From the NCBI GenBank assembly GCA_038063455.1, contig JBBTVB010000002.1, forward strand, positions 257,296 through 321,295: DNA of 64,000 nucleotides, read 5' to 3'. Position numbers and translations under genes: made by a program. A model generated the notes under the pieces. It had not been told where the DNA came from. It saw only the letters and a program-made list of their open reading frames with translations, and searched no databases. This document shows, one piece after another, positions 3,294 through 20,071 of the stretch (position 1 is the stretch's first letter; each line of letters opens with the position of its first letter). This stretch comes from Patescibacteria group bacterium (GTDB lineage: Bacteria; Patescibacteriota; Patescibacteriia; PEXW01).

Positions 3294-3370
3294 GCGCCCG
3301 TAGCTCAATTGGATAGAGTACATGGCTTCGGACCATGGGGTTGGGGGTTCGAATCCCTCCGGGCGCACCA
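3294..3370 (+). tRNA. tRNA-Arg (anticodon TCG), CCA encoded
   Basis: Manual cloverleaf: acceptor GCGCCCG/CGGGCGC, anticodon arm CATGG-CTTCGGA-CCATG, T arm GGGGG-TTCGAAT-CCCTC. Confidence 0.9.
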
Positions 3371-3419
3371 GCCACTTGAGCATGCTCTAAATGGCAACAC
3401 AGGTGGATAACTCTATAAG

Positions 3420-3445
3420 AATCGCTCAACAGAGCGATTTTTTCT
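3420..3445 (+). terminator. Intrinsic terminator after tRNA-Arg
   Basis: AATCGCTC aaca GAGCGATT followed by TTTTTT. Confidence 0.75.
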
Positions 3446-3520
3446 TTCCACAGAAGTTGTACGAAGAGGAAAGTTCGAATTAGATTTGGAGGGGGAGATT
3501 GTTCGTTCGAACCTTTTGAA

Positions 3521-3745
3521 TCAGAAAAGTGACTGCTGACGAGGCTGATGAGGGGGAGGTTCACTCGGTTGAGATGTTTGCTTTTTGTCAGGCTTCGGAG
3601 CATCGTTGTCATGGCTGAGTAGGAGCCGAAAAAGGTTCACGAGCCTATGACCCATTTCCCATGCTTCGTCGTCAGTCAGGTCCTCGCCGAAATCCTCTTT
3701 GTGGATGCGTTTCAGTTCGTCGATGTGGTGCTGTTCGAGAGACAT
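3521..3745 (-). CDS. Hypothetical small protein (74 aa; acidic helical N-half, Pro/Gln-rich tail)
   Basis: ORF 75 nt downstream of the HEPN gene on the same strand. No motif recognised. Confidence 0.45.
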   Translation of the reverse strand: MSLEQHHIDELKRIHKEDFGEDLTDDEAWEMGHRLVNLFRLLLSHDNDAPKPDKKQTSQPSEPPPHQPRQQSLF

Positions 3746-3819
3746 GATCGATTCAAGAGCTGGTTTCGAGCAAGGCTAAGCACACTGGTCCACCAATTCA
3801 GACAGACCGACTTTGAAGT

Positions 3820-4326
3820 CTAGAATCTAGCCGTCTTCTTATACACCTTCTTATAAACCAGCGATATTACACTCTTGATCGTGTCGAGTGATATTTGTGC
3901 ATGTTTCTTCGTGATAGCCGCGCTTTGTTGAGCCTTGGGATGCACAAGTGAATTTCTCCAATCCTCAACATTGCGAAGATTTGCCCAAAGGAGGTCCTCA
4001 TTGTTGATGTTGTAGTTTCCGAACCTCTTTAGCAGGAAAATAAGCTTGTCTCTTGTAGGTAAGTACTTCGTCCCAGAAATGACAAAGTTTCCATTTGAGT
4101 ATTCCAATTTCTGTTCACTCAAAAAGGCTCGCTCGTGAAGCTCTAGGCTCTTGAGCGAGATAAAGTCAGAAAATGCAAGACTAATAAATCCCTCTAAACC
4201 AAACCATGAAAATGCGATTGATGATTTGAAGTACAAATCCTTGAGGAATGCGTCCTTCTCAGCCACTCCTTGACTGAGCAGTGTTTCTGCTCCTTTCACC
4301 AGCTGTCCAATTTCTGATACCTTCAT
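3820..4326 (-). CDS. Minimal HEPN-domain protein (168 aa), putative RNase effector
   Basis: RNSLVH (aa 124-129, nt 3940-3957) fits the HEPN R[NDH]x3H / Rx4-6H motif. Sequence is helix-rich. The ATG overlaps the upstream stop (ATGA at 4323-4326). Confidence 0.6.
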   Translation of the reverse strand: MKVSEIGQLVKGAETLLSQGVAEKDAFLKDLYFKSSIAFSWFGLEGFISLAFSDFISLKSLELHERAFLSEQKLEYSNGNFVISGTKYLPTRDKLIFLLKRFGNYNINNEDLLWANLRNVEDWRNSLVHPKAQQSAAITKKHAQISLDTIKSVISLVYKKVYKKTARF

Positions 4327-5600
4327 ATACGATTCTTTGCCTTAGTCACTTCTGCCTTCGCGAGTTTGGCATGATAGCTTTTCAATGCCAATTCGATGAG
4401 GAGCTTAGTTAATGTCGGCTTCGCATTTTCAACAAATTGAACGAAGACTTCTGCCATTCTTCCCAGTTCTTTCTTGTCAGATCGTGTGCCTACCCCACGA
4501 TACGTGTCGCTATCTGTGTGGTGCTTAGTAGTCGAAAGTGCCTCTGCGTTCAGAGGGTCGATGTTTGCGGGCTTGCTGAGGCTAAACAATTTTGTCAACA
4601 GTTTCTTGTCGCTCGATAGAGATCCAGCAACCATCGCGAAAGCCGCAGTTACTACTGGCGTGATAGTCTTTGTCTTGAACTCTCCAAACCTCTTGAGCTT
4701 GTCATTGTCTTCAATAGCCGTAATTTGCTGCTTGTGAATCTCCGCAAATGCCTTTCCCGCTCGAATGAGGTCGGGATCCTGCCATAGCTCCTCGCCCTTC
4801 GCATCCAGCAATGAAGTGTACTTATCATCGACCGCGCCTCCGATACTTGATCGACATAGGTAGGGAGAATACAATGCATCCGCGTCATAAGGAGTAGACT
4901 TTCCTTCAAAGAAATTGACGATAAAACTCCTTGCGGATCGCACGGTAATCAACCCCTCTTGATTTTTTCGGTCAGCAAAATCCTTGCCTTTACCTAAGAG
5001 CCCGACAGATTGACACCATTCGCGTAAGCCGGAACGCAACATGGTCTCTTGCATACGATCAAGCAGGTCGACAGGAATTGCGATGTTGGTATTAGAGATC
5101 TGTGCAATCTCGTTCCGTTGCTCTCTCGTCAACGCAAAGTAGCACTTGAAGCCATGAGGGAGGTCAATTCCATCTTGCAAGGCGTCGCCGATAGCAATGA
5201 CCCGATGTTGTCCGCCCAGTACCTTTAGAGGTTTCGAAGCCTCATAAGCTTGATTAAATTCAACGATTAAGTCACTGAACTGCCTCCCTTTTTGTGCGTC
5301 CTCCAACATTTGGGCAAATGCACGATGCTCCTCCTGGATGCTTCGATTTGCCCTATACTCGACTTGTTCATCAGGGTCTAGTACTGCGTCGGGGTCAAGG
5401 AGTGGATCGGCCACAGAAGCAAGTATGTGACACTCGACGTAGTAGGACTTACTCTTTTGGTCCTGGAAGATAATGGGGGTAATGCTCGACGAGCTCTCTA
5501 TGGTTGTGACTGACTTCCAAAACAGTAGAAAGGCCTTCTCCGCCTCACTAGGGAAGTCTGCAATGCGACTGTCTAGAATGTAATTCTTCACTTCGATCAT
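4323..5600 (-). CDS. DGQHR-domain (DndB-like, ParB/Srx-fold) protein (425 aa)
   Basis: LKVLGGQHRVIAIGD (GGQHR = aa 129-133, nt 5202-5216), the hallmark strand plus motif of DGQHR/ParB-like domains. SD AAGGAAG upstream of the ATG. Confidence 0.65.
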   Translation of the reverse strand: MIEVKNYILDSRIADFPSEAEKAFLLFWKSVTTIESSSSITPIIFQDQKSKSYYVECHILASVADPLLDPDAVLDPDEQVEYRANRSIQEEHRAFAQMLEDAQKGRQFSDLIVEFNQAYEASKPLKVLGGQHRVIAIGDALQDGIDLPHGFKCYFALTREQRNEIAQISNTNIAIPVDLLDRMQETMLRSGLREWCQSVGLLGKGKDFADRKNQEGLITVRSARSFIVNFFEGKSTPYDADALYSPYLCRSSIGGAVDDKYTSLLDAKGEELWQDPDLIRAGKAFAEIHKQQITAIEDNDKLKRFGEFKTKTITPVVTAAFAMVAGSLSSDKKLLTKLFSLSKPANIDPLNAEALSTTKHHTDSDTYRGVGTRSDKKELGRMAEVFVQFVENAKPTLTKLLIELALKSYHAKLAKAEVTKAKNRI

Positions 5601-5736
5601 ACTTCCTTGGGTAGCTGTTTATGAACCCACAATTGAGATATTCGCAATCAAAAAGTTACAGCATATGCTGAGTTTGCGCAACTTCACCGTGAAAAGCCGC
5701 CTTCAATCTAGAGGAGAGTTTTCCACATAACATGTA

Positions 5737-6018
5737 CTATTGCGCAATTGCCCTGTGTCGCGAGCCTGCTACACTCCCATCAGACAGTTTATAGATTGTT
5801 CTTTTCCTCTTCGAGAATTGCTTCAATCGATCCTGCGATTTCAATTTCGTCGCTGCGAGGATCTGCTTGAAGCTGGGCGCCGATGGATTTTTACGGTAAA
5901 AGGTGCAAACCTGATCCATCAGGCCGCACCAGCTCGTTTCGCGGTCACAGTTCCGCGTGATGCGCGTTCGCCCATCCCGCTTCACCGTTCCCGCGAAGCC
6001 TCGCTTTACCCCAAACAT
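5737..6018 (-). CDS. Candidate small basic protein (93 aa), possible HTH regulator
   Basis: GAGGGAG SD (6024-6030) lies 5 nt upstream of the ATG at 6018. Arg/Lys-rich. The N-terminal half coincides with GC-rich hairpins, so coding status is uncertain. Confidence 0.35.
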   Translation of the reverse strand: MFGVKRGFAGTVKRDGRTRITRNCDRETSWCGLMDQVCTFYRKNPSAPSFKQILAATKLKSQDRLKQFSKRKRTIYKLSDGSVAGSRHRAIAQ

Positions 6019-6217
6019 TCGTGCTCCCTCACGGAGTTTACCCCGCCGAAGGGCGGGGTTCGGTCCGCGCCAAATGTTTGGGGACCCCGAAACCGATCTG
6101 GACCAGGACCTAAATCATCTTGCAACAGACACCTATTCAACCTATGGGGGCTTGACCTTCTTTAGGTTGCGTGATAACTTTATTTGAAACATAAAATAAA
6201 TTGAAAAAGGAGCCGAC

Positions 6218-6526
6218 ATGCTTAAGTTTATGAATGCTTTGCATTGCAGGTTTGAGCCATTTATGAACGCACGTTGGTTCAAATCCTTGATGCTCTTTAT
6301 AATATTCTTGAACCCTTTTGCCATCATTCCACAGGTCTACCAAGTATGCACGTCGACCAGTGTGGAGGGTGTATCTCTGTTTACGTGGTGCATTTTTGGG
6401 GCAATCCAAACAGCACTTGCATTCGAAGCGGTTAGGACGAAGAGTGTGGGGATATTCTTTTCGATGGCTGTAAGCGTGGTCGAATCAACTACCATTATAG
6501 TTGTTACGTACTTGCGAAGTTCATAA
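6218..6526 (+). CDS. SemiSWEET / PQ-loop family small membrane transporter (102 aa)
   Basis: IIPQVYQV PQ-loop motif followed by EGVSLFTW. Three hydrophobic segments. SD AAAGGAG upstream. Confidence 0.7.
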   Translation: MLKFMNALHCRFEPFMNARWFKSLMLFIIFLNPFAIIPQVYQVCTSTSVEGVSLFTWCIFGAIQTALAFEAVRTKSVGIFFSMAVSVVESTTIIVVTYLRSS

Positions 6527-6621
6527 AAACACTCCATAAACAAAGCCCTTGCGTCTAGCGGGGCTTTTCTTTTTCATGCATCTTGCTTAATATTTGGCTC
6601 CTCTATACAATGCTGTGGCGT

Positions 6622-6697
6622 GGGAGCATAGCTCAGCTGGTAGAGCAGATCCCTCTTAAGGATATGGTCGGGGGTTCGAATCCCTCTGCTCCCACCA
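6622..6697 (+). tRNA. tRNA-Lys (anticodon CTT), CCA encoded
   Basis: Manual cloverleaf: acceptor GGGAGCA/TGCTCCC, anticodon loop CTCTTAA, T arm GGGGG-TTCGAAT-CCCTC. Confidence 0.9.
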
Positions 6698-6732
6698 GGA
6701 ACCATCACTAGATTCGGTTTCATGGCAAGCCA
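6695..6732 (+). repeat. CCA-pairing trailer hairpin + TGGCAAGCCA motif (tRNA-Lys copy)
   Basis: CCAGGAACC ... GGTTTCATGG pairs with the encoded CCA. TGGCAAGCCA at 6723-6732. Confidence 0.6.
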
Positions 6733-6787
6733 CGAGAGTGTCTCGCCGTGTTTCCGGTGCAAGGGATTCGAACGGGTGCGACCCATC

Positions 6788-6832
6788 GGGAGCACCCTGG
6801 CCCCGAAGGGGCGAATCCCTCTGCTCCCACCA
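6788..6832 (+). pseudogene. tRNA-Lys-derived minihelix / att-like scar (acceptor 5' strand + last 21 nt of tRNA-Lys)
   Basis: GGGAGCA + 17 nt + CGAATCCCTCTGCTCCCACCA. The last 21 nt (6812-6832) are identical to 6677-6697 of the intact tRNA. Confidence 0.55.
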
Positions 6833-6984
6833 AGCTGGAAATAGCTCGAAGATAGCTAGCCTAGAAAAACCGCCAAGAACTGACGGTTTTTCTATTGCCA
6901 ATTGGAGCTGCGTTCTTTGCTGACTTGCCAAACCCCACGCAAAGAGTACTGTAACTCCAAAGAAAATCAACAAAGGAGGTTGAA

Positions 6985-7622: not shown

Positions 7623-8405
7623 TTATACCTCAAGTTGGCGGTCGATACGCTCAATTGCGATAGCGTGGCCGTCAGGACCAATTCCGACGAGTACAGCACA
7701 AAATATGGTTGGCCCATGCTCGGCAAAGGTGTGCGGCTTTTTCTCGTTGTTCAAAAACCTTGGCATAATTGCTTCCCGGTCCACGCCAATAATGCCATCG
7801 CGCAAGCCACACATGCCCACGTCCGTTATATACGCCGTGCCGCCGGGCAGGATGCGGCAATCAGCAGTCGGTATGTGCGTGTGCGTGCCGACAACCACGC
7901 TCACCCGGCCGTCGAGATACCAACCCAACGCAACTTTCTCGCTCGACGCTTCAGCATGCAGGTCGACAAACGTTGCGGCGACCTTCTCACCGGTCAACAA
8001 TTTATCCGCTGCCGTAAACGGGGAGGTCGGTTCATCTTGCATGAATGACTGGCCGATCAGATTCATAACCCGCACTTTCCCGGCAGGCGAATCAACAATT
8101 ATCGCGCCACGGCCTGGCTCGCTCGGCAAAAAGTTTGCCGGCCGCACCAGCGGCTGCTGCTCATCGGCCAGCAGAACACGGGCATCGTCTTTACTAAACG
8201 TGTGGTTGCCGCCGGTGCCCACATCCACGCCGGCTTTGTGCATCTCGTCCCAGGTCTTTTGCGTGTAACCTTTGCCATGCGCCAGGTTTTCAACGTTTGC
8301 AATAACCACATCTGGTTTGAGTTCCGCCTTCAACTGCGGCAAAACCTTGGCCACGGTTAGGCGGCCAGGTTTACCCACAATATCACCGATGAAAAGTATT
8401 TTCAT
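7623..8405 (-). CDS. ymdB: YmdB-family metallophosphoesterase (2',3'-cyclic-nucleotide phosphodiesterase)
   Basis: MKILFIGDIVGKPGR...NVENLAHGKG...GNH motifs. Start moved to the internal ATG at 8405. Confidence 0.85.
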   Translation of the reverse strand: MKILFIGDIVGKPGRLTVAKVLPQLKAELKPDVVIANVENLAHGKGYTQKTWDEMHKAGVDVGTGGNHTFSKDDARVLLADEQQPLVRPANFLPSEPGRGAIIVDSPAGKVRVMNLIGQSFMQDEPTSPFTAADKLLTGEKVAATFVDLHAEASSEKVALGWYLDGRVSVVVGTHTHIPTADCRILPGGTAYITDVGMCGLRDGIIGVDREAIMPRFLNNEKKPHTFAEHGPTIFCAVLVGIGPDGHAIAIERIDRQLEV

Positions 8406-19050: not shown

Positions 19051-19125
19051 GCCCCTGTAGCTCAATGGATAGAGCAGTCCCGTCCTAAGGGAAAGATGGG
19101 GGTTCGATTCCCTCTTGGGGCACCA
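19051..19125 (+). tRNA. tRNA-Arg (anticodon CCT), CCA encoded
   Basis: Manual cloverleaf with anticodon loop GTCCTAA and T arm GGGGG-TTCGATT-CCCTC. One T-T mismatch in the acceptor stem. Confidence 0.85.
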
Positions 19126-19160
19126 TGAACCACTCGCACGCTCGGGTTCATGGCGGGCCA
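19123..19160 (+). repeat. CCA-pairing trailer hairpin + TGGCGGGCCA (tRNA-Arg-CCT copy)
   Basis: CCATGAACC (19123-19131) pairs perfectly with GGTTCATGG (19145-19153). TGGCGGGCCA at 19151-19160. Confidence 0.65.
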
Positions 19161-19258
19161 CACATAACACTCGCTTTAATGAAGTTCTGCTCTAATAATG
19201 AGTTAGTGGTTCATGCGCTGTACCGAAACGAAGTGACTGGTACATGGCGGCTATAGAT

Positions 19259-19274
19259 TGTTCCACGTGGAACA
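19259..19274. promoter_or_regulatory. parS centromere-like site TGTTCCACGTGGAACA (copy 1)
   Basis: Perfect 16-bp palindrome matching the chromosomal parS consensus TGTTNCACGTGNAACA. Lies 24 nt upstream of tRNA-Ala(CGC). Confidence 0.7.
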
Positions 19275-19298
19275 TATTGAAAATTAGCTAGTATTTAT

Positions 19299-19372
19299 GG
19301 GCCTGTGGTTCAGTGGTAGAACACGGCATTCGCATTGCTGAGACGGGAGTTCGATTCTCCCCAGGTCCACCA
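19299..19372 (+). tRNA. tRNA-Ala (anticodon CGC), CCA encoded
   Basis: Manual cloverleaf with the G3:U70 identity pair and anticodon loop TTCGCAT. Confidence 0.9.
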
Positions 19373-19480
19373 CGCACCAGTCGCCCGCGCTTCGCACGGA
19401 CTCCGGTGCATGGCAAGCCATCAAGCTAAAGTCTTTAATAAGGACAAAGCTGGTGCGTGCCGTGTACCCGAGTTCGTGAA
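19363..19480 (+). repeat. 118-nt perfect direct repeat, copy 1 (tRNA-Ala 3' end + trailer)
   Basis: Identical to 19749-19866 (offset 386), although the two tRNA-Ala bodies differ. Includes the CCA-pairing hairpin (19370-19413) and TGGCAAGCCA (19411-19420). Confidence 0.85.
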
Positions 19481-19632
19481 ACGGACGAGTGGTTCACGGC
19501 GTCTCTAGAGAATTCATGATACGCTCGGGTTCATGGCGAGCCACCTTTCTAAATGGCTCGCGAACTTATATGTAGCGAGTGGTTCATGCGCTGTACCGAA
19601 ACGAAGTGACTGGTACAGGGCACATATCGGAA

Positions 19633-19648
19633 TGTTCCACGTGGAACA
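19633..19648. promoter_or_regulatory. parS centromere-like site TGTTCCACGTGGAACA (copy 2)
   Basis: Second perfect copy, 374 bp from the first and 34 nt upstream of tRNA-Ala(GGC). Confidence 0.7.
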
Positions 19649-19682
19649 TTTGCGAGGAATGGTATAGGATGTTTAACAATAT

Positions 19683-19758
19683 GGGCCTCTAGCTCATCTG
19701 GTAGAGCGCTTCCATGGCATGGAAGAGGTGAGGAGTTCGAGTCTCCTGAGGTCCACCA
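19683..19758 (+). tRNA. tRNA-Ala (anticodon GGC), CCA encoded
   Basis: Manual cloverleaf with G3:U70 and anticodon loop ATGGCAT. Confidence 0.9.
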
Positions 19759-19866
19759 CGCACCAGTCGCCCGCGCTTCGCACGGACTCCGGTGCATGGC
19801 AAGCCATCAAGCTAAAGTCTTTAATAAGGACAAAGCTGGTGCGTGCCGTGTACCCGAGTTCGTGAA
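19749..19866 (+). repeat. 118-nt perfect direct repeat, copy 2
   Basis: Identical to 19363-19480. TGGCAAGCCA at 19797-19806. Confidence 0.85.
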
Positions 19867-20071
19867 GCGGACGAGTGGCTCACGACTTTCGTAATAGCAC
19901 ATCTGGGCTAGGCCCGAGGTCGAACAGAAACCCTAACAAGCATTAAACAGAATTCATCAGTCAGGTACCATACTTTGGAGTTTTTTTACTAGCTAAACAC
20001 GAAAAAATTTGTGGTATGTTTAATTTGATAGATGAACATTGATAATCTAAATTCTACAAACGGGAGATAAT

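Follow-up and report, generated by a model that had tools for sequence, protein, structure and literature searches.

A folded non-coding element, here called element A, lies on the minus strand at positions 5929-6088 of a stretch of DNA from a Patescibacteria group bacterium (the whole stretch, 64,000 nucleotides long, is hereafter the window), and belongs to a previously undescribed family of structured non-coding elements in Patescibacteria-type groundwater bacteria. Its two-domain fold is conserved, strand-specific, tied to the CCA ends of transfer RNA (tRNA) genes and independent of the small gene islet found next to it in the window. The reading adopted with moderate confidence is that of a non-autonomous spreading element for which the tRNA 3' end is the landmark and whose folded strand is most likely RNA. 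The family provides a well-supported structured RNA from bacteria of the candidate phyla radiation, organisms lacking experimental genetics, and, should the RNA prove to take part in its own spread as cofactor or intermediate, it would represent a new mechanism of tRNA-gene targeting.

The folded region is a GC-rich island, as an earlier note on this DNA had described it, with a GC content of 0.62 compared with 0.39-0.46 in the flanks. Over 5890-6130 the minus strand folds with an energy of -113.5 kcal/mol (z = -4.93, with none of 200 shuffles as good) and the plus strand with -97.8 kcal/mol; an energy so far below those of the shuffles (z about -5) means that the GC-rich structure is real and not due to chance. 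The minus-strand stems listed in that note are all present where it had placed them: CCCCAAACAUU (6083-6073) pairs with AAUGUUUGGGG (6019-6009), in which an AUG occupies 6018-6016, ACCCCGCC-cuuc-GGCGGGGU forms a hairpin at 6059-6040, and the further hairpins within 5935-6008 and GGUGC...GCACC at 5931-5903 are confirmed. The long stem, P1, is actually of 13 and not 11 bp and covaries among homologues. CUCC-gugag-GGAG (6036-6024), which had been thought to occlude a Shine-Dalgarno (SD) sequence, is a possible pairing, but the minimum-energy fold prefers GCGGA/UCCGU in its place.

The copy at 5929-6088 is complete, spanning positions 1-141 of the full covariance model with a score of 143.7 bits (E = 2e-30) that matches those of other copies, and a scan with the same model found it to be the only one in all 64 kb. 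It extends from 5'-GGGGUCCCC to GAAACGAGCUGG-3' and its final UGG (5931-5929) is the antisense of a former tRNA CCA. Domain 1 (6009-6083, minus strand; -44.4 kcal/mol, z = -5.67) is closed by P1, in which 6083-6071 pair with 6021-6009, with compensatory changes in six to seven pairs plus one invariant U·G pair; inside P1 there are a conserved internal loop, UGGCGCG/GAGCACG, and then a variable apical part that in the window copy forms a three-way junction including the 6059-6040 hairpin. Domain 2 (5931-6005, minus strand; -35.8 kcal/mol, z = -5.85) is a long irregular hairpin in which outer AGC/GCU pairs are followed by P3 (UUCGCGG/CCGCGAA), tandem GA/GA separates P3 from P4 (ACGGU/ACUGU), and a 3x3 loop rich in GA leads on to the apical hairpin. 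Compensatory changes are seen in P3 and in the apical helix, P4 has an invariant G·U, and domain 2 as a whole is the best-conserved portion of the element.

The remaining members of the family were collected by two routes. A pattern built from the blocks common to the window and contig L092 retrieved seven metagenome loci (L093-L099), and a six-frame peptide search of protein databases, which matched three spurious open reading frames (ORFs) only, added the new loci L100 and L101/L102. The resulting 11 copies, about 10 of which are independent, come from Patescibacteria-type groundwater assemblies and measure 130-160 nt (roughly 140), with the consensus 5'-GGGGYCCCC...GAAACGAGCUGG-3'. The RNAalifold consensus consists of the 13-bp P1 enclosing a UGGCRCG/GAGYACG loop and a variable tip, followed by the second irregular hairpin. 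Covariation, proposed in the earlier note as a check, was examined on these copies, and compensatory changes were found in the stems: in a MAFFT alignment of seven copies 98.3% of the cells are paired, with compensatory changes at 12 pairs, none of 500 shuffles as good and only 28-48% pairing in slid controls; when all 11 copies are aligned to the model, 95.9% of the cells are paired, 18 of the 43 pairs show compensatory changes and none of 500 shuffles is equal.

The alignment also indicates which strand is folded. Its cells contain 27 G·U and one A·C combination, three G·U pairs are nearly invariant, and all ten of the copies compared (10/10) fold better, by 7-21 kcal/mol, on the strand antisense to the tRNA; the excess of G·U and the folding energies therefore identify the folded strand as the minus strand of the window, antisense to the adjacent tRNA. 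The product under selection is a folded single strand that reads towards the tRNA gene and is most likely RNA.

Not all the copies are equally preserved. In L095 domain 1 is unrecognisable and no tRNA is adjacent, and L097 has two copies of the element 3.6 kb apart. L097 also harbours, at 6678-6910 of its plus strand, a divergent long relative of about 230 nt (53.5 bits) that has the same domain 1, an extra hairpin and a domain-2-like 3' part with GUUCGAAAUGAGC at its end; this variant adjoins no tRNA, has a DUF1761 gene on one side and a VTT/DedA gene on the other, and follows a terminator. On the minus strand of L100, a partial domain-1 copy (GGGGTCCCCAAATATTTGGCGCG...) directly precedes the complete element, at about 45 nt upstream of position 8379, and its stem is closer to that of the window copy than to that of the neighbouring full copy, a likeness that suggests replacement or nesting of copies.

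The second characteristic of the family is the junction with tRNA genes. The element ends in ...GAAACGAGC followed by UGG, the antisense of CCA, so that a GAGC|UGG boundary joins it tail-to-tail with the tRNA gene. In 8 of the 10 independent loci the 3' end abuts either a tRNA gene or what remains of a tRNA 3' end, and seven tRNA species are involved. The junction is direct, with an intact tRNA, for Arg-TCG in L092/L093, Pro-TGG in L094, Asp-GTC in L096 and Arg-CCG in L099; it is formed with a remnant of 17-22 nt of the tRNA end for Arg-TCG in the window, Arg-GCG in L098, Gly-TCC in L100 and Gly-GCC in L101/L102, and at these loci the order is element A, tRNA-end remnant, another small insert and intact tRNA. 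The boundary is sharp: the conserved scaffold stops at ...GAAACGAGC(UGG), beyond which the antisense sequences of the different tRNAs diverge. An exact and oriented junction with CCA at seven tRNA species is unusual and gives a concrete starting point for learning how small elements locate tRNA genes in these reduced genomes. Occupancy is also variable, the element being present at tRNA-Gly(TCC) of L100 and absent at the near-identical tRNA-Gly(TCC) of the window.

On the opposite side the copies have little in common. Their 5' flanks are TTTC, CTCT, GGTC, TTAC, CTTC, ATTA, CTTA, TGTA and ACAG; the element begins 4 nt past a stop codon in L101 and right after a terminator in L099. Direct repeats of the tRNA end do not flank the element at 8 of 9 loci, where no remnant is present within 600 nt upstream. 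The neighbours of every copy with enough flank are ordinary housekeeping genes and tRNAs.

In the window the element is separated from its tRNA by a later event. tRNA-Arg(TCG), recognised by both ARAGORN and Rfam, occupies 3294-3370 of the plus strand and differs in few positions from tRNA-Arg(TCG) of L093, which abuts element A directly. A displaced remnant of the tRNA-Arg(TCG) 3' end, TGATCCATCAGGCCGCACCAGC, lies at 5912-5933 of the plus strand and is identical to 3351-3372 at 17 of 22 positions, while the next-best match to the tRNA-Arg end within 3372-6600 reaches only 13 of 22. When tRNA body, remnant and element are joined, they are colinear with the uninterrupted arrangement of L092/L093, L093 representing the empty site. 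Because the 17/22 repeat bounds the 2.5-kb islet (3373-5911, minus strand) and the joined sequence is colinear with L093, the islet was inserted later into the 3' end of tRNA-Arg(TCG), pushing element A 2.5 kb away from its tRNA; the element thus lies outside the islet and is independent of it.

The islet encodes, on the minus strand, a 74-aa ORF (3521-3745), a 168-aa HEPN-like protein with an RNSLVH motif (3820-4326) and a 425-aa protein with a GGQHR motif (4323-5600), and it includes their own upstream region; no integrase is present in 3373-5911. The last two genes constitute a module of which more than 300 homologues are known; it frequently adjoins restriction-modification genes, and an HNH domain is fused to some of the homologues. 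Pfam, NCBIfam and PADLOC give no match for the 425-aa and 168-aa products, and the 'DGQHR-HEPN' label of the pair is a putative assignment made from motifs only. The sole promoter-like site near the islet, TTCATA-18-TATGAT (5596-5625, minus strand), overlaps the ATG at 5600; the length of the GGQHR protein differs between annotation sources (425 or 422 aa), so that its start is uncertain and its mRNA may be leaderless. A hairpin, GGUGCGGCCUGAU-GGAU-CAGGUUUGCACC, followed by UUUU (5899-5931, minus strand; -17.2 kcal/mol, z = -2.77), is located at the islet boundary, its 5931-5903 stem being made of the tRNA-Arg remnant and the last islet bases, outside element A. It was considered as a conserved intrinsic terminator and rejected, being missing from the other copies and unlisted by the terminator scan.

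Several observations argue for a spreading element: the junction is identical at seven tRNA species, presence and absence differ at near-identical tRNA-Gly(TCC) genes, truncated, partial and nested copies occur (L095, L100), and two copies in L097 are only 3.6 kb apart. In the mechanism proposed, the element would take the CCA of the tRNA 3' end as its landmark and would depend on a trans-supplied protein, for which its own RNA fold would be either cofactor or intermediate; the GA-rich loops are the likely points of protein binding. A more specific version, in which element A is a bacterial counterpart of short interspersed nuclear elements (SINEs), mobile through an RNA copied by a trans-acting reverse transcriptase, is considered unlikely. 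In this model the UGG of a transcript ending in ...GAGCUGG would anneal to the mature CCA-3'OH of any tRNA, or to a nick at the CCA of a tRNA gene, and copying would yield tRNA-CCA-(element complement) at many tRNA species with no target duplication. The arrangement recalls the primer-binding site of long terminal repeat (LTR) retroelements, since a read-through transcript would carry UGG and the complement of a tRNA 3' end after its structured part, and the genomic order tRNA-CCA-(element complement) would be, by analogy, the product expected from tRNA-primed copying. Unlike those retroelements, element A has no LTRs, no reverse transcriptase was seen in the 64-kb window or in the flanks of the copies, and the complement is the tRNA gene itself. 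There is a modest chance that element A embodies a new RNA-mediated way to target tRNA genes. As a milder variant, it could be a regulatory RNA binding tRNA ends, with its conserved UGG-containing loops contacting the CCA end.

A number of results weigh against spreading at tRNA ends. Three copies are away from tRNA ends, namely L095, the long variant at L097 6678-6910 and copy 1 of L097, which is separated by 150 nt from tRNA-Ser. Near the copies with enough flank, no reverse transcriptase, TnpB, transposase or integrase was found, and no target-site duplication accompanies the element, its mobility being judged from the distribution of the copies only. No motif is conserved in the 5' flanks, in particular no fixed target motif of 4-5 nt at the left end, and no promoter upstream of the 5' GGGG is shared among the copies; given also the starts behind a stop codon and a terminator, transcription may depend on read-through. 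The tRNA-Arg(TCG) position common to the window and L092/L093 fits vertical inheritance and homing equally. The sample consists of 11 copies (about 10 independent) from few groundwater samples and, because most of them were retrieved by the exact pattern or by domain-2 peptides, ascertainment accounts in part for how little domain 2 varies; this retrieval bias does not affect the covariation seen in P1 and in the apical helices.

The main rival, possible although clearly less probable than a spreading element, is a resident and non-mobile family of small RNA genes with a cellular role, such as the binding of a protein or of a tRNA. The position convergent to the tRNA would then be useful in itself, either because antisense tRNA or colliding transcription sets the 3' end or because less antisense transcription enters the tRNA, and the variety of tRNA partners would derive from old duplications and rearrangements. 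The fold is indeed under strong purifying selection with many compensatory changes, the tRNA-Arg(TCG) position is the same in the window and L092/L093 despite the divergence of domain 1, the long variant of L097 sits in a housekeeping context devoid of tRNAs, and all the neighbours are ordinary genes. A resident gene accounts poorly, however, for an identical junction at seven tRNA partners, for the variable presence at near-identical tRNA-Gly(TCC) genes, for truncated and nested copies and for the lack of a promoter common to the copies. Below this rival, a relic of an RNA-guided transposon, a DNA-level recombination site and the leader originally proposed for the region are progressively less likely. 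In the transposon alternative, which is improbable, the element would be a relic or non-autonomous end of the IS200/IS605 TnpB omega-RNA type and its 3' 'guide' would be the flanking antisense tRNA end. The structured scaffold, the sharp 3' boundary, the variable flank-derived sequence beyond it, the fixed orientation and the absence of inverted terminal repeats and target duplication are all features of omega-RNAs and IS200/IS605 right ends; nevertheless, TnpB, IscB or TnpA adjoins none of the 11 copies, the 5' flanks have no fixed 4-5-nt target motif, Rfam gives no match, including any models of IS605-associated RNAs it contains, and such a guide should have an arbitrary right flank, whereas that of element A is mostly a tRNA end.

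Selection could also act on DNA, the element being a single-stranded DNA (ssDNA) recombination or replication site, like attC or HUH hairpins, in which G·T pairs replace G·U and which marks tRNA ends as landing pads for cassettes; this is judged quite improbable. attC-type sites likewise fold strand-specifically, and small inserts recur at tRNA 3' ends with repeats of about 20 nt of the tRNA end, as at 6677-6697/6812-6832 and 3351-3372/5912-5933 in the window and in L098, L100 and L101. On the other hand, a 140-nt element with two elaborate domains and conserved GA-rich loops far exceeds in size the ssDNA recombination hairpins known, element A is free of flanking tRNA-end repeats at 8 of 9 loci, and no recombinase is nearby. 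Finally, the earlier note had suggested that the region could be a cis-acting leader at the head of the islet, a translational switch (thermometer, riboswitch-like or antisense-controlled) in which stems conceal the SD and the start codon of a small basic ORF with a possible helix-turn-helix, an idea that now has very little probability. In its favour, the window copy does resemble SD-sequestering leaders in that its stems enclose the AUG at 6018 and the purine-rich GAGGGAG, and a 93-codon frame (5737-6018) runs on the strand of the islet genes. This frame is, however, an open frame only: no gene is called at 5737-6018 in the annotation of the source assembly (GCA_964364675.1), its codons 1-29 belong to element A, codons from about 30 to 36 to the tRNA remnant and the remainder to the islet end, and because it crosses these junctions the ORF, with its SD and AUG, is a chimeric accident of juxtaposition.

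Comparative data agree with this conclusion. In a phmmer search of 1.84 billion representatives, the 93-aa product matched two repeat-junk proteins and P0122 only, the latter 76% identical over residues 3-35 and itself a spurious ORF of contig L092 that reads through the homologous GC-rich element and then through the antisense of tRNA-Arg(TCG); Pfam and PADLOC gave the product chance-level matches only, far below thresholds, and the helix-turn-helix suspected in it is unsupported. The 'SD' and AUG are conserved in no homologous copy: the start-codon site, GAAUGUUUGGGG in the window, reads GCUCGUGGGG, AUCCGUGGGG, GUCUGUGGGG and so on elsewhere, and the AUG position falls in the 3' strand of the covarying stem P1, where other copies have CGUGGGG, UGUGGGG and similar sequences. 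The copies differ in length by amounts not divisible by three, which places the same peptide in different frames. An ORF with no homologues beyond spurious translations, an AUG placed in a covarying stem and an unpreserved frame leave no basis for a switch; unlike SD-sequestering leaders, element A is accompanied by no conserved ORF, SD or downstream gene. Nor does the element head the islet, since the islet was inserted later and the other copies are never linked to the GGQHR/HEPN-like pair. The comparison of orthologous islets gave the same picture, as nothing comparable precedes the relatives of the pair (43-68% identity) at the eight loci that contain them and the model finds no match there, the relatives being located directly behind other genes with no room for such a leader. 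The alternative of a stand-alone RNA of the islet, also raised in the note, holds as regards a stand-alone RNA, with its conserved fold and compensatory changes, but not as regards membership of the islet. A false lead is thereby removed, there being neither a small regulator gene nor a translational switch over the GGQHR/HEPN-like islet.

Searches for known families, among them the Rfam/Infernal scan advised at the outset, placed element A in none. The 4227 models of Rfam 15 at E <= 1 have no match over element A in the window, over that of L092 or over the L097 long variant, and on the window they match nearby tRNAs only. Resemblances seen by eye to cobalamin riboswitches, T-boxes, RNase P J11/12, signal recognition particle RNA, 6S RNA, transfer-messenger RNA (tmRNA) and hammerheads were dropped, as no model scored, and a reading of the stretch as tRNA-like or as tmRNA was rejected because ARAGORN and Rfam detect nothing there. 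No match to the element was found in phage and plasmid collections, viral contigs gave no significant match and only chance matches to the pattern, and no description of it turned up in the literature when searched by topic and motif string. Synteny sought by way of the neighbouring YmdB gene led to genome matches of only about 50% identity at best, none with element A.

Among known systems, orphan bacterial non-coding RNA motifs are similarly compact GC-rich islands in AT-richer intergenic DNA, with several helices that covariation supports and with internal loops that are conserved and rich in GA; unlike those of the Rfam type, element A matches no Rfam 15 model, and to our knowledge no described family has a fixed tail-to-tail junction at the tRNA CCA end. 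Repetitive extragenic palindromes, bacterial interspersed mosaic elements and miniature inverted-repeat transposable elements are comparable in being small, non-coding, strongly folded, patchy in presence and placed between convergent genes, but element A is neither a palindrome nor composed of inverted repeats, occurs once in the 64-kb window and covaries in the manner of an RNA, with G·U pairs conserved. Genomic islands that integrate site-specifically into a tRNA 3' end and duplicate the attachment core resemble the islet at 3373-5911, with its 17/22 repeat, and a 114-nt insert at tRNA-Lys, with an exact 21-nt repeat, and differ from element A, which has no tRNA-end repeats in 8 of 9 loci and starts exactly after CCA; with such a start at seven tRNA species, a single integrase/attachment-site pair would not do it. 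Element A could not be placed in any known family, and on the features that could be compared it qualifies neither as a transposon guide RNA nor as a retroelement primer-binding site.

Other small inserts occur at tRNA ends in the same genomes. The last 21 nt of tRNA-Lys(CTT), CGAATCCCTCTGCTCCCACCA (6677-6697, plus strand), recur exactly at 6812-6832, and the 114-nt insert enclosed by these repeats (6698-6811) is homologous to an insert of L100 between the tRNA-Gly remnant and tRNA-Gly(TCC), with an alignment score of 65 compared with a shuffle maximum of 32; from this likeness, it looks like a second family of tiny elements at tRNA T-loop/CCA ends. In front of both displaced tRNA remnants of the window (5902-5931 and 6788-6832, plus strand) stands a short sequence complementary to the acceptor strand, GGTGC...GCACC and GGGAGCA...TGCTCCC respectively, and each therefore forms a hairpin like a tRNA 'minihelix', which suggests that the inserted cassettes carry a putative attachment site resembling the tRNA top half. 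A further small and conserved structured element, 'B' (CTGGGCAGCG-hairpin-CGGCGTTCCCRCTTCGC...GCTCGCGGTCACTGCTGCCCTTCRACTCCT), is found in L092 (1215-1358), L093 and L098 and is bounded by inverted copies of a tRNA 3' end; in L098 it lies between the tRNA-Arg(GCG) remnant and the tRNA, and in L092/L093 just upstream of element A, the pair being flanked by a remnant of the tRNA-Arg end. Element A and these other inserts suggest an organised use of tRNA 3' ends as landing sites in this lineage.

At 19051-19900 of the window (plus strand), tRNA-Arg(CCT), tRNA-Ala(CGC) and tRNA-Ala(GGC) each have related repeats directly past CCA that share a motif around CATGGCRRGCCA, similar to one in the tRNA-Lys flank, and about 120 nt are near-identical behind the two tRNA-Ala genes. 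Divergent from the element region, a 102-aa gene (6218-6526, plus strand) encodes a membrane protein with weak similarity to SemiSWEET (NCBIfam E = 9e-9, which does not reach the curated cutoff), and a terminator-like site at 6547-6563 precedes tRNA-Lys.

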